DNA of 64,000 bases from Candidatus Oxydemutator sp. (lineage in GTDB: Bacteria; Pseudomonadota; Gammaproteobacteria; Poriferisulfidales; Oxydemutatoraceae): positions 2,272,001 through 2,336,000 of the forward strand of contig OZ241883.1 of the NCBI GenBank assembly GCA_965203445.1, in the 5' to 3' direction. The notes beneath the pieces were generated by a model. That model had not been told where the DNA came from. It searched no databases and was given only the letters and a program-made list of their open reading frames with translations. The number at the start of each line of letters is the position of its first letter. The first letter of the stretch is position 1. The position numbers and the translations under genes are program-made. Below, piece by piece: positions 6,281 through 18,638 of the stretch.

Positions 6281-6398
6281 GCCTGGCGGTGTCCTACTCT
6301 CACACGGGGAGGCCCCGCACTACCATCGGCGATGTGCCGTTTCACTTCCGAGTTCGGAATGGGATCGGGTGGTACCAGCACTCTATGGCCGCCAGGCA
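6281..6398 (-). rRNA. rrf: 5S ribosomal RNA (stand-alone)
   Basis: Minus strand TGCCTGGCGGCCATAG...CCCGATCCCATTCCGAACTCGGAAGTGAAAC...GATGGTAGTG...GAGAGTAGGACACCGCCAGGC. Confidence 0.97.
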
Positions 6399-6544
6399 AA
6401 CCGGTTGTCGCGCGCTTCAATGCGTGGTGGCAATCAGATAATCCAGAAAACCCAGTATCGAGAAAAAGATGAGCGGCGAGATCATGTTCTCCGGAGGCGC
6501 TTTCGTCATCGCAATTCTCGTTTCTGGTTGATCGGTAACCGCCG

Positions 6545-6572
6545 ATTATAGCGCATCAAAAAAACATCGCAA
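6545..6572 (-). promoter_or_regulatory. Sigma70 promoter for the 5S rRNA
   Basis: TTGCGA-N16-TATAAT followed by a GC-rich discriminator (CGGCGG). Confidence 0.65.
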
Positions 6573-6589
6573 AACGGGATGTATGGGCT

Positions 6590-6811
6590 TGTCAAACCGA
6601 AGCACAAATGTCCTATTGTTTCCAAAGCGCAGATGTCCTGTTGTTGGCAGGGCTTAGCGCTTTCATGGTCTCCCCGCCAGCGTCTCCACGGGTGATCCGG
6701 CGCCGGTCTGTGGCCTGAACCGCAGCGCCGCCTGGTTGTCGCCTTATCCACTACAGATGGCAATTGTTTTGCGTCCACTGGCGCCGCCGGTGCCTCGCCC
6801 AGGCGATGCAC
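6590..6811 (-). mobile_element. ISNCY/IS1202-like transposon right-end remnant
   Basis: Residual ORF with a GHRPAPDHPWRR C-terminal motif; end ...TTTGACA preceded by two copies of AGGACATyTGyGCTT. Confidence 0.6.
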
Positions 6812-7172
6812 CTAGTAGGCAGTTCGCGCGTGTTTCAGTTGTTGAGGGATTGGCTATACTGGTGATGCTACGGGAAAGCGATCGCCCTTCGATCCGAGGA
6901 GAAGTTTCAGTTGTTGAGGGACTGGCTATACTGGTGATGCTGCTATCTGCGGGCGCGCGGGCACGGGCAGATCGGGTTTCAGTTGTTGAGGGATTGGCTA
7001 TACTGGTGATGCGCCGCCGCGCGCGAGACCGACGCCGAGGATACCGCATGTTTCAGTTGTTGAGGGATTGGCTATACTGGTGATGCCGAGGGGTACGCGG
7101 GGTAGGCGCTTGCGGACGGGCAGGGTTGTGATACACTTCGCCCGTCACTCTTTGGGATTGGTTATACTGGTT

Positions 7173-7274
7173 TGAGGGCGGTGACGCCATCTTCTGCGGG
7201 TGGCGGAACCGATGGCAGAAGATGTGCAAGCGTCAGGAGACCGTCCTCCTCCTGCAATTTAGTAGCCGCCCTCA
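7173..7274. ncRNA. Putative multibranch structured RNA inside the array insert
   Basis: Stems TGAGGGCGG/CCGCCCTCA, CATCTTCTGC/GCAGAAGATG, CAGGAG/CTCCTG; TATACT box at 7163-7168 just upstream on +. Confidence 0.45.
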
Positions 7275-7604
7275 TTCCTTTTGTTTCGCCCTTTTTCTTT
7301 GGTACAGCAGAATCCCGACGCGGCGCCTGTCAATGTATTCCCACTTCGCGCGCAGCACGGTCACAAACACCGAGCCGTCCTCGTGCTCCTGCGCGACCCC
7401 GAGAATGGGACGCGCCTTGTCCTCGCCTCGGAACACCTTGATATAGTGCCTGCGGTATTCGCCTGGCCACGAATACCAGGCCAGCCACTCCTCGTCGGCA
7501 TCCTTCAGCGTCGGTAAATAGAAGTTTGCGTATCGCTCGCGCCAAGTGCGCCTCCCCTTTTTGCCGACGACGACGTGGGTTGCGCCCCCCCAGCCGAATC
7601 TCAC
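7272..7604 (-). CDS. PBECR2-like nuclease domain (MuF C-terminal toxin-like), probably an N-truncated fragment inside the array
   Basis: RERY..YLPTLKDADEEW...YRRHYIKVF...YIDRRRVGILLYQR pattern; the frame stays open up to the repeat at 7636. Confidence 0.6.
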   Translation of the reverse strand: MRFGWGGATHVVVGKKGRRTWRERYANFYLPTLKDADEEWLAWYSWPGEYRRHYIKVFRGEDKARPILGVAQEHEDGSVFVTVLRAKWEYIDRRRVGILLYQRKRAKQKE

Positions 7605-10600
7605 GCCCCCGGCGGGCTCTCCCCGCGTTTTGATGGTTTCAGTTGTTGAGGGATTGGCTATACTGGTGATGCGGTCGGCGCCGGTGGCGAACCACCAGAA
7701 CTTGCGGTTTCAGTTGTTGAGGGATTGGCTATACTGGTGATGCCGAAATCCAGGGGCGCGTGCTCGCGCCCGACGACGGGTTTCAGTTGTTGAGGGATTG
7801 GCTATACTGGTGATGCAGAGGTTTCCTTTGCCGAGTTGGACAAGCGTTGGGGTTTCAGTTGTTGAGGGATTGGCTATACTGGTGATGCGCTTGTGCCAAC
7901 GCCTGCGCACGCGGCGCATTGATGTTTCAGTTGTTGAGGGATTGGCTATACTGGTGATGCCTTTTGCTCGACGCCCTGCAACATTTCCACGTTCGTTTCA
8001 GTTGTTGAGGGATTGGCTATACTGGTGATGCCGCAGCGCGCCGAAGTTCCGCAGCACCCACTCCACGTTTCAGTTGTTGAGGGATTGGCTATACTGGTGA
8101 TGCCCGGCGCCGGCAGCGCGAGCGGCGGCAGGTCAATCGTTTCAGTTGTTGAGGGATTGGCTATACTGGTGATGCCGACGACGCGCTCTACGACGCGGAG
8201 CTTCATGAGTTTCAGTTGTTGAGGGATTGGCTATACTGGTGATGCGATCGCGCAGATGCCGAAGGCCGACATCTATGGCGTTTCAGTTGTTGAGGGATTG
8301 GCTATACTGGTGATGCCGCAAGGTCAAGACTTCCGCGGCGCATAGCCGACGCCAGGCGCATAGCCGACACGGCTATACTGGTGATGCCGCAAGGTCAAGA
8401 CTTCCGCCCCAGGTTTGTGGATGTTTCAGTTGTTGAGGGATTGGCTATACTGGTGATGCTGTTTGGTGTTGTCGAGCGCGGTGGCAGAACTGGTGTTTCA
8501 GTTGTTGAGGGATTGGCTATACTGGTGATGCATACCCGCCCGGCCAATACCACTATATCCCCGGGTAGTTTCAGTTGTTGAGGGATTGGCTATACTGGTG
8601 ATGCGTCAAGTATGGGCGTTCGACGGCCTCCAGCCTATGTTTCAGTTGTTGAGGGATTGGCTATACTGGTGATGCACGGCGCAGGGGAAAACGCGCCTGA
8701 GGTTATGCCGTGTTTCAGTTGTTGAGGGATTGGCTATACTGGTGATGCGGCGCGCTGACTTTGTTCTTGGTCACCTTCGCGGTTTCAGTTGTTGAGGGAT
8801 TGGCTATACTGGTGATGCTCTCACAAACAGTCTGGCCGCGTTTCACATCCCAGTTTCAGTTGTTGAGGGATTGGCTATACTGGTGATGCCGCGTTGGCCG
8901 ACACCGCCGCGCGTGTGCTCGGCAGTTTCAGTTGTTGAGGGATTGGCTATACTGGTGATGCTGATGAAGGCGATTGTGGACATGAGGCCGGCGCCGTTTC
9001 AGTTGTTGAGGGATTGGCTATACTGGTGATGGCCGCGACTGGCGATCAATGCGTGGCGGGGAAGCCGCGTTTCAGTTGTTGAGGGATTGGCTATACTGGT
9101 GATGCTGGGTGTTCGCCAAATCGAAATACGCGGTCAACGCAGTTTCAGTTGTTGAGGGATTGGCTATACTGGTGATGCGAAGTGATCCGCAAGTTCCCCG
9201 CGCACATGACAAGTTTCAGTTGTTGAGGGATTGGCTATACTGGTGATGCCTCCAGCATGGCTTTCTGTTTCGAGTCCAGCCCGCGTTTCAGTTGTTGAGG
9301 GATTGGCTATACTGGTGATGCAGCTCTACACCTCCGTCGTGGCAAATAATGTCCGGAGTTTCAGTTGTTGAGGGATTGGCTATACTGGTGATGCTCCCGT
9401 GCGCGTTCCGCTGGTCGAAAAGAGGCGGCGTTTCAGTTGTTGAGGGATTGGCTATACTGGTGATGCTGTCGTACACGAGCGACGACGGCGACAAGTTTTA
9501 TCGTTTCAGTTGTTGAGGGATTGGCTATACTGGTGATGCATCCCGACTCGTCCGGCAGTCTTTGGGCTCAGGGGTTTCAGTTGTTGAGGGATTGGCTATA
9601 CTGGTGATGCTGCGCTCGGATGGCTGGCGGCGTCGAAGGTCTTGACGTTTCAGTTGTTGAGGGATTGGCTATACTGGTGATGCGCGGGAGGTGATGACGG
9701 CCCTTTCCGAAAACGTGTAGTTTCAGTTGTTGAGGGATTGGCTATACTGGTGATGCATAAAGCAAGGTGTTGATGAGACTATTAGTTTCGGGTTTCAGTT
9801 GTTGAGGGATTGGCTATACTGGTGATGCAATCTCGAAGTGGACATCGCCGACCTGCTGAACGAGCAGTTTCAGTTGTTGAGGGATTGGCTATACTGGTGA
9901 TGCCGTAGCCGCACAAAGATTAAACAGAAAATGGATGTTTCAGTTGTTGAGGGATTGGCTATACTGGTGATGCCGGCGCCGACCCCGCCCCCGGATCCCG
10001 TCCGCGACCGTTTCAGTTGTTGAGGGATTGGCTATACTGGTGATGCGCTGGACCTTCTGCACGAGGCGGCGGTCGGCGCAGGTTTCAGTTGTTGAGGGAT
10101 TGGCTATACTGGTGATGCGTGATGCGCGCTCTTGACCTCTTCTGCGGCGTCGGGTTTCAGTTGTTGAGGGATTGGCTATACTGGTGATGCTTAGAAGTGA
10201 AACAATTATGGTTCGAGGACGCCAGTTTCAGTTGTTGAGGGATTGGCTATACTGGTGATGCGGACGGCACGGCAATCAGAATAAAAGACGTACCGAGTTT
10301 CAGTTGTTGAGGGATTGGCTATACTGGTGATGCCGGTGATAGAGAGAATCAAGAGGGAGGAAAAGTGAGTTTCAGTTGTTGAGGGATTGGCTATACTGGT
10401 GATGCGGCACGTTTGCAGGCACGACCTTGTCGGCGGCACGTTTCAGTTGTTGAGGGATTGGCTATACTGGTGATGCGCGGCTACGCCGTTCGGCCAGGGC
10501 ACCAGGGTCTGTTTCAGTTGTTGAGGGATTGGCTATACTGGTGATGCCGGGGCCGCCGCCGACGTTCCCTTTGTCTCAACAAGTTTCAGTTGTTGAGGGA

Positions 10601-10691
10601 TTGGCTATACTGGTGATGCAGAAAGGCACGCAGAGTTCAGAGATGCTTATCGCAGTTTCAGTTGTTGAGGGATTGGCTATACTGGTGATGC

Positions 10692-10784
10692 CCCATCCCA
10701 AGCCCTTGTTTTACAAGGGCTTGGGATATTTCACAGGGGGCAGAATTTTCGCAAGTAGAGCTATTGCACCAAAGCACGGCGAAT
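10692..10784. promoter_or_regulatory. CRISPR leader with a long palindrome
   Basis: Lower GC; ATCCCAAGCCCTTGT-TTT-ACAAGGGCTTGGGAT next to the last repeat. Confidence 0.65.
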
Positions 10785-10812
10785 TTGCGAAAAGTAACGA
10801 TTGTGCTACGAT
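10785..10812 (+). promoter_or_regulatory. Promoter of tracrRNA-1
   Basis: TTGCGA-N16-TACGAT with an extended -10 TG. Confidence 0.65.
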
Positions 10813-10819
10813 CATGACT

Positions 10820-10946
10820 CCAGTATAGCCAATTCTTGATACTCTGTAATCATAAAAAAGTATCTTGAACGGACCTCTGCATTTTTGCACGTCTGCCTTC
10901 ACTCGATGAAGGATTAAGAAACCGCCTCCGGGCGGTTTCTTTTTTT
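10820..10946 (+). ncRNA. tracrRNA-1, type II-B (Francisella-like)
   Basis: Anti-repeat CCAGTATAGCCAAT, then CTCTGTAATCAT-AAAAGTAT-TTGAACGGACCTCTG-CACGTCTG resembling the FnCas9 tracrRNA as recalled; ends in a terminator. Confidence 0.85.
10916..10946 (+). terminator. Intrinsic terminator (possibly bidirectional, also serving cas4)
   Basis: AAGAAACCGCC-TCCG-GGCGGTTTCTT plus T-run. Confidence 0.85.
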
Positions 10947-10953
10947 CCGACTC

Positions 10954-11547
10954 TCACAATCGGTCATTACAAAAATTCACGTATTCGCAGGTGCAGCACT
11001 GGGCGACCGTCGCACTCGATTCCGGCTTCAGTCCACGCCGCAGCATCCGCCTGATTTTATCCGCCACCTCTGCAACCAGCCGACGCTTGTCCGCGTCAAT
11101 GTCAATCGTATGCAGAACCTTCCCTTTCCCGACCAAGAATCCGGCCGTGCTCGGCTTGGAAAAATGCTCCTCTAACAGCAAGGCATAAGCCGCCAGTTGC
11201 AGTTGGTCGCCGCGCTTCCCGCGGTTTGCGGAAAGCTTGAACTCGACGGCGTACACCGCCTCGTCGGTTTCCACCGCCATGTCCGCGATGCCATGCAGTC
11301 CCAACGCATCGCTGCGCACCGCCAGATTGTGATGGGTTTTCCCGCTCCGCAAATTGAATCTGGAGAGATTGCGACGCTGCCATAATTTTTCCTCTGCCCG
11401 GTGGAAGTGCTCTCCCTGCCCGACCCAGACGGGGCGATGAAAAGCAACATCGGTCAACTCCATGTAATACACGACCCGCGGGCAGTAGCACCACTGCCGG
11501 ATTAAATTTACCGGAATGCTATATGGCAAGGGTTTCCTCCCAATCAT
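10954..11547 (-). CDS. cas4: CRISPR-associated exonuclease Cas4
   Basis: QWCYCPR, GIAD, VEFK, QLAAYA, CCTCEYVNFC Fe-S cysteines; start may be as far up as 11574. Confidence 0.93.
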   Translation of the reverse strand: MIGRKPLPYSIPVNLIRQWCYCPRVVYYMELTDVAFHRPVWVGQGEHFHRAEEKLWQRRNLSRFNLRSGKTHHNLAVRSDALGLHGIADMAVETDEAVYAVEFKLSANRGKRGDQLQLAAYALLLEEHFSKPSTAGFLVGKGKVLHTIDIDADKRRLVAEVADKIRRMLRRGLKPESSATVAQCCTCEYVNFCNDRL

Positions 11548-12787: not shown

Positions 12788-12880
12788 GGTGTGATCGTGC
12801 CGGCCAGCCGCGGGCTTGGCCGCGTACTTGACCTGGTCTATAGACCGGTATTATAGTCTATATAACACAGGGAGCAGGCC

Positions 12881-13123
12881 ATGACCAAAGAAAACATCGG
12901 ATCTTACGAGGCGAAAACGAAGCTGCCCGAACTGTTGAGGCGGGTGCAGGCGGGCGAGGCCTTTACGATAACCAGACGTGGCAAGCCCATAGCGGACCTG
13001 CTGCCCAGCCAGGCCGGGGCGCGACAAAAGACGGCGGCCGCCATTGACAACATCGCTGCCATGGGCAAACGGACGGTCTCCGAGCGTCGCCTGAAAGAAT
13101 ATAGAGACAAAGGCCGCGAGTGA
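12881..13123 (+). CDS. Phd/YefM family antitoxin
   Basis: IGSYEAKTKLPELLRRVQAGE.FTITRRGKPIADL. Confidence 0.9.
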   Translation: MTKENIGSYEAKTKLPELLRRVQAGEAFTITRRGKPIADLLPSQAGARQKTAAAIDNIAAMGKRTVSERRLKEYRDKGRE

Positions 13124-13545
13124 CGACCTTCGTGCTGGATAATTCAGTGGCAATGCGTTGGCTGCTCGCAACTCCCAGCCCTTCGGGGCAGAAGTATGCC
13201 GGGAAGGTCCTGCAAAGCATGAAAGACGCGGACGCGCTCGTGCCCGCGCTCTGGCACCTCGAAGCGGCCAATGTCCTGCTCCACGCCGAAAGAGACGGCC
13301 AGATAACGACCGGCCAGGCACAAGCGTTTGTCTCACAACTGAAAAATCTGCCCATTACGATTGATTCACCGACCCAGACAAATTCGGTCGACCGAATTAT
13401 GGCGCTGGCTCGGTCATACAACCTCAGCAGTTACGACGCCGCCTATCTGGAGATTGCCACCCGCAATTCGGTACGGCTCGCCACCCTGGACAGATCGCTG
13501 GCAAAAGCAGCGAGGAAAGCGGGAGTAGGTATCTATCTGAAATAA
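13120..13545 (+). CDS. vapC: VapC/PIN-domain toxin
   Basis: FVLDNSVAMRW, WHLEAANVL, SSYDAAYLE, LATLD; coupled to the antitoxin. Confidence 0.9.
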   Translation: MTTFVLDNSVAMRWLLATPSPSGQKYAGKVLQSMKDADALVPALWHLEAANVLLHAERDGQITTGQAQAFVSQLKNLPITIDSPTQTNSVDRIMALARSYNLSSYDAAYLEIATRNSVRLATLDRSLAKAARKAGVGIYLK

Positions 13546-13561
13546 GAAAGCACCAGTGTGC

Positions 13562-13828
13562 TCAAGTAGTCTTCGCCTTCAGCGGGAACCGCGCAGGATT
13601 TCGGATGATTTCTCTGCTCAGATCAACGTCTATCATCGGCCAGTAATAATGATCCGCAGATAATTGCTCCACTTTAAGGATCGCCTCAACGGGCTGCCCC
13701 TTGAACCAGGGAAAATCCTCGTAGGACAGAAATAACTCCTCATCATGTGCAAGCAGCCATATACCGTGGGTAGATATATGGGTAACTTCAACTTCTGAAG
13801 TAGTCTTTCCAGGCATTGATGAGTTCAT
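13562..13828 (-). CDS. DUF2442 domain protein
   Basis: EVTHISTHGIWL, FLSYEDFPWF, YYWPMIDVDLS, PARFPL. Confidence 0.8.
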   Translation of the reverse strand: MNSSMPGKTTSEVEVTHISTHGIWLLAHDEELFLSYEDFPWFKGQPVEAILKVEQLSADHYYWPMIDVDLSREIIRNPARFPLKAKTT

Positions 13829-16800: not shown

Positions 16801-17790
16801 GCGATCCTGCTCCAAGCCACAGGCGACTTTCATCAGGTTTTCCAACCCGCTTAGCATTTCCTCACGATGGCGATTACGATGTGGACGATAAACTTTGCCT
16901 TCCTCAAAAAGCTTCTCACCTGTTTGTAGGCCAAGCATAGTCATAATGCGAGTAACAATTTCTTCTTCCTGAGGTATGGTACTTCCAGCCCCATAGACCA
17001 AACCAAGGCGTTCTTTGATCCAGCTCTTTATATCCTCTGGCACAGCATCTTGAAGTTTTATTTCCAGTGCCTCATAAACCACTTCCTGCCTGGCAAGCTC
17101 CTCCATGACTGAAGAATCTTTTTCGGCTTTTTTTCTGAGATCGTGAATCTCTTTAGCTTTCTCATAAAGCTCACCCAGGCAGCTCCGTTCCTCTTTTATT
17201 TTTATAAAGGAAACAGTTTTGTCAGAAAATTTTTGAGACTCACTATGCCTTGAACGCCTGTTGAATTCTTGTCTTGCGTTGTCTTGGGCTTGTTTGTATT
17301 CCTCGTCTGATTCATTCTTGTATTTCCTACGCCCTTTCTCGTTAAATTCCGCGGGCGCATTAAATTCCTGAAGAAGAATCCTGTCAACTTCTTTAACTAT
17401 TAGAGGGCATTTAGGAGATTTACCATCATCAGTTTTGACAACGAGCAATTCAAGCAAGCTCGCATAGTCCCATCCACGATAATGGGCTAGCGCATAAAGG
17501 CGGTTTCCAAGAGAAGCCTTATCTCTCTCAGTCTGTTTCTCCCCCGGTTTCGCATTTCTTGGCTCCAACCCCATGCCTTTAAGAAGCGCATAGAAGTCGC
17601 GTAGCCGCCTCGCCTTGGAAAGTTTCCGCCTGCGTTGTCCCCTGTTGACGCGACGTTTTTGGAGAGTATCCGATAGCGTAGTGCGATGTTTGAGAACTTT
17701 ATAATCCAGGACTTCATTACTTGAACTCAACAAGCCAACGCCTGTATATGCGTAACCGAAGTCAATCCCTAATCTGAAGGACTTATTCAT
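13825..17790 (-). CDS. cas9: Type II CRISPR effector Cas9 (Cas9d/II-D-like core with large insertions), ~1321 aa
   Basis: RuvC-I LGIDFG..YTG, Arg-rich bridge helix, RuvC-II GIETARFD, HNH GRCIFCG..HIDHLFP..CN..K, RuvC-III HHALDA; ATG 17790 with AGGTGG RBS. Confidence 0.9.
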   Translation of the reverse strand: MNKSFRLGIDFGYAYTGVGLLSSSNEVLDYKVLKHRTTLSDTLQKRRVNRGQRRRKLSKARRLRDFYALLKGMGLEPRNAKPGEKQTERDKASLGNRLYALAHYRGWDYASLLELLVVKTDDGKSPKCPLIVKEVDRILLQEFNAPAEFNEKGRRKYKNESDEEYKQAQDNARQEFNRRSRHSESQKFSDKTVSFIKIKEERSCLGELYEKAKEIHDLRKKAEKDSSVMEELARQEVVYEALEIKLQDAVPEDIKSWIKERLGLVYGAGSTIPQEEEIVTRIMTMLGLQTGEKLFEEGKVYRPHRNRHREEMLSGLENLMKVACGLEQDRFQICLDETFQGLKKSKVNQNRQILSMAKIKQDWQQSMADVHNKASEIAHRAGTTPTEIKKRWIKAATKVVNREYRKKRFNNRNSMGKCPAATDDDGTRCGLNLPKKRRKDVRRLQFEIELRQMNVRRANGNKDKLDESEIQKLMNSLEFVKELDGVIKNKNQETINQFFTNSRGNRYVLPAENEARGKKDILRDIICGEQPGRAGFCIKHLEQKLNLLERDETKGNSWARLHEERVLTLKDDAPPSIRQKVEKITVVVRKMLKEQEVRDLRNSPIPIEHVGIETARFDISALAQSEGKKLKKKLKPKQYQQSAGGDMATLRADQGGRCIFCGEFLHSDAHIDHLFPKSKGGGNIARNKVIGHSICNIDKHNRREPLDKNVLSLIENNNPEKHKFIQSRLEADRRLPEDMLAAPQHTMFGAKLLKQAFMDEFNLPSEVIHKIRSGDSIYLRRFWFPFMDRQKRAIRFRNPYKTKAGEEFKYELSKLKLDEYLFDGEVSICKDYDEGVTDWLEIRTDKNNGKVMLVGTPDDNAVGTNQFWLENCNNKNFVLEVVKEGKTSGKKKDETLYETKGQLDQELELLLEDVFSKDKKLSKLLEGANASVKLKYRKNDEEAGNDWLSVKGNKLVGTLKKCYRKRGNGKYVPWCDVEVVDKSTGEISNIKVMIKTKIAVKRFKVIVEPAKDDPIREFHHALDAVVLAANVDWEAIKRLNSDVRKQARKENAPAFINLREDGRGNLLAPDKSSGWYVEDKRNEGKIECSKTDTEPLRCLDGMITQRKPLEKIQKKNIGNIQSEPIRMAMEKAWEKIDDMPDDRKKEMTNGSGDKRTITHSYFLRLPQEHILHPKNTRSVRCVRVGPGVRGGMGVQQMWRRKDKNTKGMHHFRRTVSWDKVMVIQYNKDGKDKIDAVRITNKFYWKDKSQPVYERNEIDKELPVNYKILKIFKRGDRVRIDGKSGPWAITKLGPRATLRDDETMEETEIGYKELEIYREPSQ

Positions 17791-17804
17791 AACCCACCTG
17801 AATG

Positions 17805-17939
17805 TAAAACAATACCCTGCATAAAGCAGGGTATTGTAGATTTTGCTCGCCCTCAAGCGGTGACTTACTGAAAACAGAGCATCGCCTGCAAAAAACGATG
17901 GTGCCAGCAAGCACCTCGGACTTTTTTCAGTTGTTGAGG
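17805..17939 (-). ncRNA. tracrRNA-2 candidate upstream of cas9
   Basis: 15-nt perfect anti-repeat CCTCAACAACTGAAA (17925-17939), several hairpins, terminator ACAATACCCTGC/GCAGGGTATTGT followed by TTT. Confidence 0.75.
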
Positions 17940-17943
17940 CCTG

Positions 17944-17971
17944 ATTGTAACGACGAAGAAAAAACTGTCAA
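17944..17971 (-). promoter_or_regulatory. Promoter of tracrRNA-2/cas9
   Basis: TTGACA-N16-TACAAT directly upstream of the anti-repeat. Confidence 0.8.
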
Positions 17972-17987
17972 GCCCTGATGTGTTGTT

Positions 17988-18638
17988 CTACATTGGCGTC
18001 GCAGGGGTTGCGAAGTCGTCGTCGTAGAAATAGTGTCCCTTCAGCCGTTTGACGTTGAAAATGAGTATTTCGCTATGGAACAGTATGCCGTCGAACACGT
18101 TCTTCGGGAGGCTGATTATCGAGCATATCTCGGGATAAGTGCCGTCTACAAACTTGATCCAGCGCCTCGATTGTTGCGTCTGGTTCAGGCGCAATCCGTA
18201 AGGGGTGAACAGCACAATCGGGATGCTTTTGCCGAACAGTTCTATCGCTTTTTGCAGCCACACTTCCGGCAGCAATGGCCTGCCACCATAATTTTCTACC
18301 AGATGCGCTTTCGTCTTCGGGTCAATGTTGAACGGGGGGTTCATTATCACGAGGCCAGGCTCCTTCAGCTCTCCCTTCTTTACCTTCAGATAATTCCTGA
18401 CCCGCGTCCTCGGAAAACCCTGCTTTTCTATATCAATGCCGACAACGTCAAACCCGTTCTCCTCGAAAGGCCGCAGCAACGAACCCTCGCCCACGCACGG
18501 GTCGAGCACCGGCTTCGACTTGTCAATGCGCTTGCCGACCAGTTCATACAGGAACCGGCTGACACCTTCCGGCGTCTGTATCGTGGATTTCTTTTGTCGG
18601 TTGTAAAAATTATTGCGATCAACTCTGTACATCGTCAT
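17988..18638 (-). CDS. Solitary N6-adenine DNA methyltransferase
   Basis: VLDPCVGEG (motif I) and MNPPF (motif IV); GGAGGAG RBS. Confidence 0.8.
   Translation of the reverse strand: MTMYRVDRNNFYNRQKKSTIQTPEGVSRFLYELVGKRIDKSKPVLDPCVGEGSLLRPFEENGFDVVGIDIEKQGFPRTRVRNYLKVKKGELKEPGLVIMNPPFNIDPKTKAHLVENYGGRPLLPEVWLQKAIELFGKSIPIVLFTPYGLRLNQTQQSRRWIKFVDGTYPEICSIISLPKNVFDGILFHSEILIFNVKRLKGHYFYDDDFATPATPM

Follow-up and report, generated by a model that had tools for sequence, protein, structure and literature searches.

An over-long unit in a type II-B CRISPR array of Candidatus Oxydemutator sp.: two foreign pieces of DNA and a probable repeat scar between them

The complete genome of Candidatus Oxydemutator sp. 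[quoted passage not shown] One spacer position of this array is filled by a 549-nt unit (7087-7635) that holds an 18-mer resembling the repeat, a strongly folding stretch and an open reading frame (ORF); the question raised by this locus is whether these parts form a working RNA device or are the debris of a damaged array. A first-pass annotation took them for a repeat-mimic promoter plus structured RNA convergent on a toxin ORF. It is considered probable here that the 18-mer is a repeat scar lying between two microhomology joints, and that the structured stretch (7172-7274) is the 3' intergenic region of a phage gene.

Anatomy of the 549-nt unit

The features on which the argument depends are as follows.

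6832-10691, + strand: type II-B CRISPR array, 46 repeats of 37 nt (GTTTCAGTTGTTGAGGGATTGGCTATACTGGTGATGC), strand assigned from complementarity to the trans-activating CRISPR RNA (tracrRNA)
7050-7086, + strand: intact repeat on the left of the 549-nt unit
7087-7635, + strand: compound, over-long "spacer" unit of 549 nt, in the order piece A, putative repeat scar, piece B
7087-7158, + strand: piece A, 72 nt of foreign DNA starting at the repeat border, matched by a 342-nt contig of run X3
7154-7171, + strand: 18-mer GGGATTGGTTATACTGGT, in the orientation of the array and agreeing at 17 of 18 positions with GGGATTGGCTATACTGGT of the repeat (nt 15-32)
7172-7274, either strand: multi-stem structure of 103 nt, on the - strand directly 3' of the phage gene stop
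7272-7634, - strand: 3' fragment of a Phage_Mu_F + PBECR2 head-protein/nuclease gene, 120 codons plus stop
7636-7672, + strand: intact repeat on the right of the 549-nt unit

Both outer borders of the unit are repeat borders, and the unit is single-copy: 7087-7635 finds only itself in its own genome. Direct comparison confirmed the annotated 17/18 match of 7154-7171 to repeat nt 15-32, and the TATACT box is present at 7163-7168; the 18-mer thus shows 94% identity over 18 of the 37 repeat positions (49% coverage), with array repeats 68 nt and 465 nt away. When the full repeat is placed in register, 19 of 37 positions agree, 17 of them within the 18-mer; repeat nt 1-14 and 33-37 agree at 2 of 19 positions. 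When 7087-7300 is aligned locally with the complement of the tracrRNA, or with an orphan repeat found elsewhere in the genome, the repeat core aligns and nothing else does. Allowing up to two mismatches, the 18-mer pattern has 47 forward sites in the whole genome, all in the array or at 7154-7171, and 2 reverse sites, both in a degenerate orphan mini-array.

It is extremely improbable that the match is a product of chance or the unit an artefact of assembly. Repeat-rich regions are prone to misassembly; against this, the reversed 18-mer pattern, run as a control, has no match genome-wide, the probability of a 17/18 match anywhere in 549 nt is about 2e-5 by our own arithmetic, and one 607-nt contig of run X1 covers 7058-7664, and with it the whole unit, without a difference, which places the insert physically inside the array. 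Since run X1 probably supplied the source data, the check cannot count as independent; contigs of four runs were placed on 6500-8000, and run X4 gave none there.

The 18-mer can be divided into three parts. Its first five bases, GGGAT (7154-7158), are common to piece A; its last nine, TATACTGGT (7163-7171), are assigned to piece B; between them stand the bases found only in the repeat, TGGT (7159-7162) where the repeat has TGGC. The sole mismatch, C to T at 7162, therefore coincides with the inner edge of the right-hand microhomology.

A promoter at the 18-mer, as annotated, is not borne out by a sigma-70 scan of 6400-7800, which returned no promoter-like site there or in any repeat. TATACT occurs in every repeat at nt 24-29, and neither the scan nor inspection by eye found a -35 element or TGn beside it; an extended -10 would have TGn as the three bases before it, where the 18-mer has GGT and the repeats have GGC. 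Repeat-embedded promoters are described for type II-C systems, with a -10 in each repeat and primary 5' ends mapped in the spacers (PMC5965381); for type II-B systems, none was found in the accessible parts of the literature on them.

Foreign origin of the two pieces

Run X3 belongs to another study and is labelled as a sponge metagenome; its 342-nt contig matches 7087-7158 with 3 differences and continues on both sides into unrelated, non-repeat DNA. The match begins at the first base after the repeat 7050-7086 and ends at 7158, five bases into the 18-mer, so GGGAT is native to piece A while being equal to repeat nt 15-19. By its sequence piece A looks like the end of a + strand gene: a frame with G/C-rich third positions runs in from the left flank of the X3 contig and stops at TAG (7103-7105), and a hairpin formed by GACGGGC (7115-7121) and GCCCGTC (7140-7146) is followed by ACTCTTT. 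The first 35 nt of the piece (7087-7121) are of spacer size and are followed by AGG (7122-7124).

Piece B contains the ORF that had been annotated as a toxin (7275-7604, - strand, 110 aa), which matches the Pfam family PBECR2 (E 5e-12) over profile positions 38-120 of 120 only. The neighbouring repeat does not close its frame, in which a GTG at 7604, 31 nt into the unit, is the first possible start. The best relative is P0002, a protein of 425 aa in which PBECR2 comes after Phage_Mu_F; the fragment is identical to residues 309-425 of P0002 at 74 of 117 positions, from the codon 7634-7632 to the stop, the alignment starting directly at the repeat border. Among 142 library matches the domain is C-terminal and the proteins are mostly 400-470 aa long, some being short; PBECR2 ends an open frame of at least 400 codons in 26 of the 32 fetched loci, and Phage_Mu_F plus PBECR2 was seen in 8 of the 9 related loci scanned. 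Since the domain is C-terminal in these long relatives, ORF 7275-7604 is a gene fragment: the supposed toxin is the 3' end of a phage gene of ~425 codons, cut at the repeat border. With a partial profile match and homology that begins at the border of a repeat, the ORF is not a complete, expressible toxin gene. On its strand no sigma-70-type promoter was found in the scanned interval, and a GGAG is poorly spaced; an RNA antitoxin would therefore be left without a clear client. A gene call, P0003, already exists for the 110-aa ORF.

MuF polymorphic toxins of temperate phages (PMC5576092, PMC12226406) are the kind of gene from which the fragment derives. As in those toxins, the source gene combines an N-terminal Phage_Mu_F domain with a variable C-terminal domain of toxin type (PBECR2), whereas the array holds only the C-terminal 120 codons, with neither the MuF part nor an immunity gene.

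Searches for the source of 7087-7635 gave nothing longer than 31 nt in 40 relatives and no match at E <= 1e-4 in 52 other genomes of the order; GenBank phages, searched by DNA and by protein, and plasmids gave no match, nor did phages searched with the whole array for protospacers. IMG/VR had 0 matches each for the protein, the 18-mer, a 24-mer of piece A and the long hairpin. A single-protein search of metagenome and genome contigs returned none, and a search of such contigs with alignment A2 returned distant relatives only (10, 17 and 5 loci, 24-43% identity).

The three-stem structure annotated between the 18-mer and the fragment is real: the stretch folds strongly, and its closing stem takes in the stop codon of the ORF. 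The + strand of 7172-7274 folds to -52.0 kcal/mol against -34.9 +/- 3.6 for shuffled sequences (z -4.81; none of 200 shuffles as good), and the - strand to -48.3 kcal/mol (z -4.70; again none of 200); the closing stem is of 9 bp, pairing 7173-7181 with 7266-7274, and contains the TGA stop of the - strand (7272-7274). On the + strand the structure is followed by TTCCTTTTGTTTCGCCCTTTTTCTTT. Rfam has no family for 7000-7700 at E <= 10. The sequence TTGAGGG (7172-7178) was considered as a second piece of repeat (approximately repeat nt 11-17) and rejected, as it pairs with the stop-codon region of the phage gene and is thus native to the phage.

Relatives of the phage gene provide a counterpart of this stretch. 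Downstream of the homologous stop they have structured or terminator-bearing regions, the structure being significant (z <= -2 against 60 mononucleotide shuffles per locus) in 9 of the 30 loci that could be scored, 2 of the 32 being too short; the intergenic region is ~100-110 nt long and usually opens with a hairpin at or just after the stop, and a co-directional gene comes next, preceded by ...TATAGGAG... A TATAG/GTATA motif lies 60-135 nt past the stop, just before the ribosome site of the next gene, in 11 of 30 of these loci, compared with a background of 0.027 per interval of that size in the remainder of the loci. On the - strand here, the only motif of this type lies 108 nt past the stop and is the TATACT of the 18-mer. 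From this comparison of sequences, 7172-7274 is most likely the tail end of the phage gene with its own 3' intergenic region, and most likely not a regulator.

In distant prophages, Phage_Mu_F/PBECR2 genes (loci L016, L018, L022, L028, L029, L037, L045, L048 and others) have a hairpin at the stop and a conserved TATAGGAG box ~100 nt downstream; the gene right after the box is co-directional and encodes a protein starting MAG... or MSG...

An antitoxin reading of the same parts would have TATACT act as a repeat-type promoter for a structured + strand RNA of ~100-125 nt, ending in the T-rich tract after 7274 and serving as an antisense antitoxin to PBECR2; it is considered very doubtful. The structure is indeed very stable and is followed by TTCCTTTTGTTTCGCCCTTTTTCTTT on the + strand, the fragment retains conserved PBECR2 residues, and the anomalies of the array cluster at its 6832 end, which is abutted by a dispersed repeat element and where repeat-internal promoters would be sensible. 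On this last ground internal promoters would not be implausible, and the scar could fire a by-product RNA. Against the antitoxin, however, the client is a fragment whose first start is internal to the unit, for which the scan found no sigma-70-type promoter and which has no well-spaced ribosome signal; no partner element was found beside TATACT, no Rfam family was matched, the + strand is expected to be transcribed as the CRISPR RNA (crRNA) precursor (pre-crRNA) anyway, and the structure is already accounted for as the 3' region of a phage gene. CreTA is a toxin-antitoxin pair located in or next to a CRISPR array. A further likeness is offered by the type I toxin-antitoxin pairs that lie by the arrays of Clostridioides difficile (PMC5961336), in which, as here, a toxin-type ORF is met by convergent potential for a structured RNA; those pairs, however, are complete small toxin genes with promoters and mapped antitoxin RNAs, whereas this locus has a truncated domain of a phage protein.

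Origin of the unit and its rival explanations

The two foreign pieces meet in the repeat-like 18-mer in a way that suggests how the unit arose. The relatives of piece B carry their TATAG/GTATA motif at the matching place, which makes TATACT(GGT) plausibly native to piece B as well as equal to repeat nt 24-32; their next gene is co-directional and begins ~100-110 nt on, while piece A is convergent, which makes A and B unlikely natural neighbours. Five bases native to A, nine plausibly native to B and the TGGT between them form the pattern expected from two microhomology joints into one repeat. The annotation's suggestion that the match may have seeded recombination into the array thus survives in a modified form: both ends of the 18-mer equal sequence native to the foreign DNA that flanks them.

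The order and mechanism of events that we infer from this anatomy are as follows. The ancestral array would have read repeat, spacer Sa, repeat R2, spacer Sb, repeat, with Sa (~7087-7121) and Sb (~7601-7635) being two adjacent, normal spacers. An invader matched by Sa would have recombined through one crossover in the 35-bp identity with the spacer and a second joint in R2 at the 5-nt GGGAT; an invader matched by Sb would have done likewise, its second joint falling at the 9-nt microhomology TATACTGGT. The two events may have been separate, or may both have taken place within one template-switching repair. In either case invader flank would have been copied into the array, 37 nt on the left and ~430 nt on the right, and R2 would have been reduced to nt 15-32; the right flank would be the end of the Mu-F/PBECR2 gene with its own structured 3' region. 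If this scar reading holds, the source phage would be expected to read ...CCAGTATA, then a ribosome site and gene start, without GGGATTGG.

Several consequences would follow for the array. Sa no longer has the repeat nt 1-14 handle, which pairs with the tracrRNA core, and is therefore presumed dead; from the intact repeat 7636-7672 and the 20-30 nt before it, a crRNA against the phage gene could still be made, as type II crRNAs retain the repeat-proximal part of the spacer (PMC5965381). Any transcript of the whole unit would be + strand pre-crRNA, running antisense to the gene fragment, and the rest of the unit would be cargo.

A second aberrant unit of the same array (8317-8422, 106 nt) shares the left-hand architecture, with a normal start at the repeat border, then extra DNA, then a partial repeat. 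It opens with the first 20 nt of the next spacer, followed by 34 nt with a tandem duplication of GCGCATAGCCGAC, repeat nt 21-37 (8371-8387) and a complete spacer; the 5' part of its repeat is replaced by non-repeat DNA.

One recognised form of array decay is the partly deleted repeat that lies hidden in an over-long "spacer" (PMC4869251, the CRISPRDetect paper), and the 549-nt unit has what defines this class, namely a partial repeat in array orientation, between intact repeats, read as part of one long spacer; the same array supplies a second example. It differs from such decay in that the flanking "spacers" are lengthened by foreign DNA (67-72 nt and ~464 nt) and not shortened, and in that the bases at either end of the remnant are equally native to that foreign DNA. 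Spacers of at least 100 nt are rare (Kupczok et al. 2015, PMC4524480): one E. coli data set, for example, had 6 among its 746 unique spacers. The unit is likewise a rare, over-long one, but those spacers are mostly transposon-like, whereas the present unit has neither transposase nor inverted ends and consists of a phage head-gene fragment and another piece of foreign DNA.

Recombination between spacer and protospacer has reportedly been seen in staphylococci. The recombination and integration of phages in type II arrays (Varble et al., 10.1101/2020.10.09.333658) resemble the present case in that phage DNA enters a Cas9 array by way of short identities and that rearrangements, deletions and duplications of units ensue; here, in contrast, there is no whole prophage, integrase or duplication of an attachment site (att), and the partial repeat is an internal one between two intact flanking repeats. 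A prophage-remnant (att) model was for its part ruled out by the intactness of both flanking repeats.

The unit is thus a fresh example of a known array lesion, with an unusually informative anatomy. If the scar reading is true, it would be the relic of an exchange in which a Cas9 array recombined with the invaders targeted by its spacers, and in which ~0.5 kb of phage DNA was captured and one spacer was killed by the loss of its repeat handle; this would bear on array decay and on the escape of targeted elements. For annotators it serves as a warning that ORFs and "structured RNAs" inside arrays may be cargo. As a single example it carries modest weight.

A number of points weigh against the scar reading. 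The evidence for piece A is a single X3 contig of depth 2.4, in which the site of only one of the 3 differences was seen, and the assignment of TATACTGGT to piece B draws on distant relatives (24-43% protein identity) and on the TATA core only. The protospacer adjacent motif (PAM) of Francisella Cas9 is NGG; reading the AGG after 7121 as a PAM is only suggestive, since the PAM of the present Cas9 is not derivable from its spacers. Two spacer-anchored events on one repeat, or one repair with several switches, is not a simple scheme. The fragment keeps all residues invariant in an 11-sequence alignment, and homologues of ~100 aa exist; residual PBECR2 activity would thus be possible if it were translated. 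No source element was found, and piece A, the 18-mer and piece B may have been contiguous in one phage.

This last alternative takes the whole 549 nt as a single unbroken fragment of a phage or mobile element to which the repeat-like 18-mer is native, either as a decoy of the tracrRNA upper stem (an anti-CRISPR like Racr or like viral small CRISPR/Cas-associated RNAs, scaRNAs) or as a repeat-like attachment site, and that entered as one oversized spacer via Cas1-Cas2 or by double recombination at two spacers; it is considered unlikely, though not negligibly so. In its favour, the unit ends exactly at a repeat border on either side, and a single event would be simpler than two; the 18-mer is intergenic, lying between two convergent gene ends, and its RNA would pair with the tracrRNA anti-repeat nearly as well as the true repeat segment does (-25.0 versus -27.4 kcal/mol), the C to T change giving a G-U pair. 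Precedents exist in the repeat mimics carried by phages (PMC10651486), in viral scaRNAs and single-guide RNAs (sgRNAs; 10.64898/2026.06.01.729453) and in a phage attachment site (attP) with 8 bp in common with a type II-A repeat (10.1101/2020.10.09.333658). It is opposed, however, by the X3 relative of piece A, which diverges inside the 18-mer, and by the relatives of piece B, which have a co-directional gene in the place of piece A; furthermore, repeat coverage is 49% and the Cas9-bound nt 1-14 are missing, no sigma-70-type promoter was found upstream in the scan, and the 18-mer has 0 matches in IMG/VR.

The phage repeat decoy that had been proposed for the 18-mer would accordingly be possible only if the 549 nt are one phage fragment, and the missing nt 1-14 and the 49% coverage count against it. 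Solitary repeat units are defined by at least 90% identity and at least 90% coverage (50-90% being "partial"), by being solitary and by location in a viral genome (PMC10651486); the 18-mer falls short of this in coverage and has array repeats nearby, and its phage origin is only a possibility. With viral scaRNAs, sgRNAs and RNA anti-CRISPRs (10.64898/2026.06.01.729453; PMC10651486) it shares a repeat-like sequence in the company of phage DNA that could pair with the anti-repeat, but it differs from them in having no Cas9-bound 5' part, no guide to the cas9 promoter and no anti-CRISPR neighbour. A bolder form of the contiguous-fragment reading, in which the 18-mer and the structured RNA would be an undescribed anti-Cas9 sponge of the tracrRNA upper stem (17 bp) that misdirects RNase III processing and was swallowed whole by the array, is given a small chance.

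The other device proposed, a host regulator like scaRNA or CreA, depends on the tracrRNA, which lies just beyond the array.

10818-10946, + strand: tracrRNA, with the anti-repeat CCAGTATAGCCAAT at 10821-10834, the core, a terminator at 10916-10941 and then a T-run

Such a regulator would be a degenerate repeat that loads into Cas9 with tracrRNA and represses a host gene. Partial repeats are indeed scattered in this genome (in the cas9 leader, in the orphan mini-array and at 8371-8387), but the reading is judged highly improbable. The 18-mer has nothing of repeat nt 1-14, which align with the conserved core of the tracrRNA, the core matched by the Francisella model, and so provides no scaRNA or crRNA handle and no Cas9-bound duplex segment; the would-be guide is foreign DNA; and the element sits inside the array, between repeats 4 and 5 and with no promoter-like site in the scan, whereas scaRNAs are defined outside arrays (PMC6199352). 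No guide to the cas9 promoter was found: no 10-mer or longer match is common to 7087-7300 and either the region upstream of cas9 (17881-18600) or that of the tracrRNA (10692-10960), on either strand. The cas9 leader and 7087-7300 have TTGAGGGCG in common, but not significantly so: 52 of 200 shuffles reach that score. As a separate candidate, the minus strand of 7090-7171 was tried as a second tracrRNA, having an anti-repeat and a hairpin, and was rejected for its lack of scaffold similarity, an A-C mismatch and the foreign origin of piece A. All functional antisense or regulator readings, taken together, are assigned a slim chance.

The type II-B setting and other partial repeats

The system is a type II-B CRISPR-Cas9 system by its sequence features, the marks of this type being cas4, 37-nt repeats, an array read against the direction of the cas operon and a tracrRNA adjacent to that array (PMC3737331). 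Cas9, Cas1, Cas2 and Cas4 are all encoded, the repeat is of 37 nt, and the cas genes lie on the - strand (cas4, cas2, cas1, two small ORFs of which one is a DUF2442 protein, and cas9), while the repeat sense and the tracrRNA are on the + strand, the orientation being taken from sequence. Cas9 shows HNH and RRXRR matches and a RuvC-I motif after the ATG at 17790; no NCBIfam Cas9 model reaches its cut-off, the top one being Cas9d (114 bits versus 375). Cas1 matches PF01867 (E 3e-61), Cas2 matches TIGR01573 (27.8 bits versus a cut-off of 24.5) and Cas4 matches TIGR00372 (97.5 bits versus 65). Within the array 44 of the 46 repeats are exact and 2 have one substitution; 43 of the 45 spacers are 33-38 nt long, the outliers being the units of 106 nt (8317-8422) and 549 nt (7087-7635). 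The tracrRNA anti-repeat is a perfect 14 nt, and the duplex with the whole repeat has an energy of -32.7 kcal/mol; the core aligns over its full length with the Rfam family FtrA (Francisella sRNA A) at 41.4 bits (E 6.7e-5 in a local search), a score under the family gathering score of 134.

The CRISPR-Cas9 system appears isolated within its lineage, as judged from the genomes compared: the repeat core is found in none of the 52 other genomes of the order, 3 of which have one two-mismatch match each, and no relative of the Cas9 was found among 400 sampled genomes of the class. Against their own genome the spacers give a single partial match of 23 nt (spacer 7961-7994), from which a PAM could not be derived; the first 23 nt of that spacer equal genome positions 138431-138453, ~5 kb from the orphan arrays, and its repeat-proximal end has no match, which makes self-targeting unlikely.

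The 240 nt directly upstream of the first repeat (6590-6829) belong to a dispersed repeat family, of which the genome has no fewer than 7 other copies (84-90% identity) and run X3 has relatives too; with this element abutting it, the array has no ordinary leader at its 6832 end. A gene for 5S ribosomal RNA (6281-6396, - strand, 102 bits) lies between a signal-peptidase-like ORF and the CRISPR array; 23S and 16S gave no match in positions 1-24000 of the window. The two small ORFs between cas9 and cas1 (12854-13828, - strand) are that of the DUF2442 protein (13565-13828) and one of 161 aa that matches nothing in Pfam or NCBIfam.

A degenerate, orphan mini-array of type II-B lies outside the window (G000:C1:143430-143560, - strand); it has two repeats that agree with the consensus at 24/37 and 30/37 positions and one 37-nt spacer, the 3' seed of which has no convincing target in the genome. 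It adjoins a separate array with a different repeat (GGTCTATCCCCGCGCGTGCGGGGGAACC), putatively type I-E-like, and the end of a transposase-like gene. Isolated 12-13-nt matches to repeat nt 1-13 (GTTTCAGTTGTT) at G000:C1:1757355 (+) and 1975816 (-) are probably due to chance, as shuffled repeats give a mean of 5.5 such 12-mer matches.

In 17788-17971 (- strand), the ~150-nt cas9 leader follows a near-consensus promoter (TTGACA, 16 nt, TACAAT; 11/12; 17971-17944) with a predicted start at ~17937, and leads to the true cas9 start, the ATG at 17790 (MNKSFRLGIDFGYAYTG) and not the TTG at 17910. It opens with an anti-repeat, CCTCAACAACTGAAA(A) at 17939-17924, which complements repeat nt 2-16 perfectly and, arrays and tracrRNA aside, is the sole 15-mer to do so; it pairs with the 5' part of the repeat at -24.1 kcal/mol, compared with -7.4 kcal/mol for the lower stem of the tracrRNA in the same calculation. 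The leader is strongly structured (z -4.0), with terminator-like hairpins, one of them of 12 bp and just before the ribosome site. This anti-repeat, which is more intriguing than the 18-mer, could couple Cas9 expression to the level of pre-crRNA, or could be a vestigial tracrRNA.

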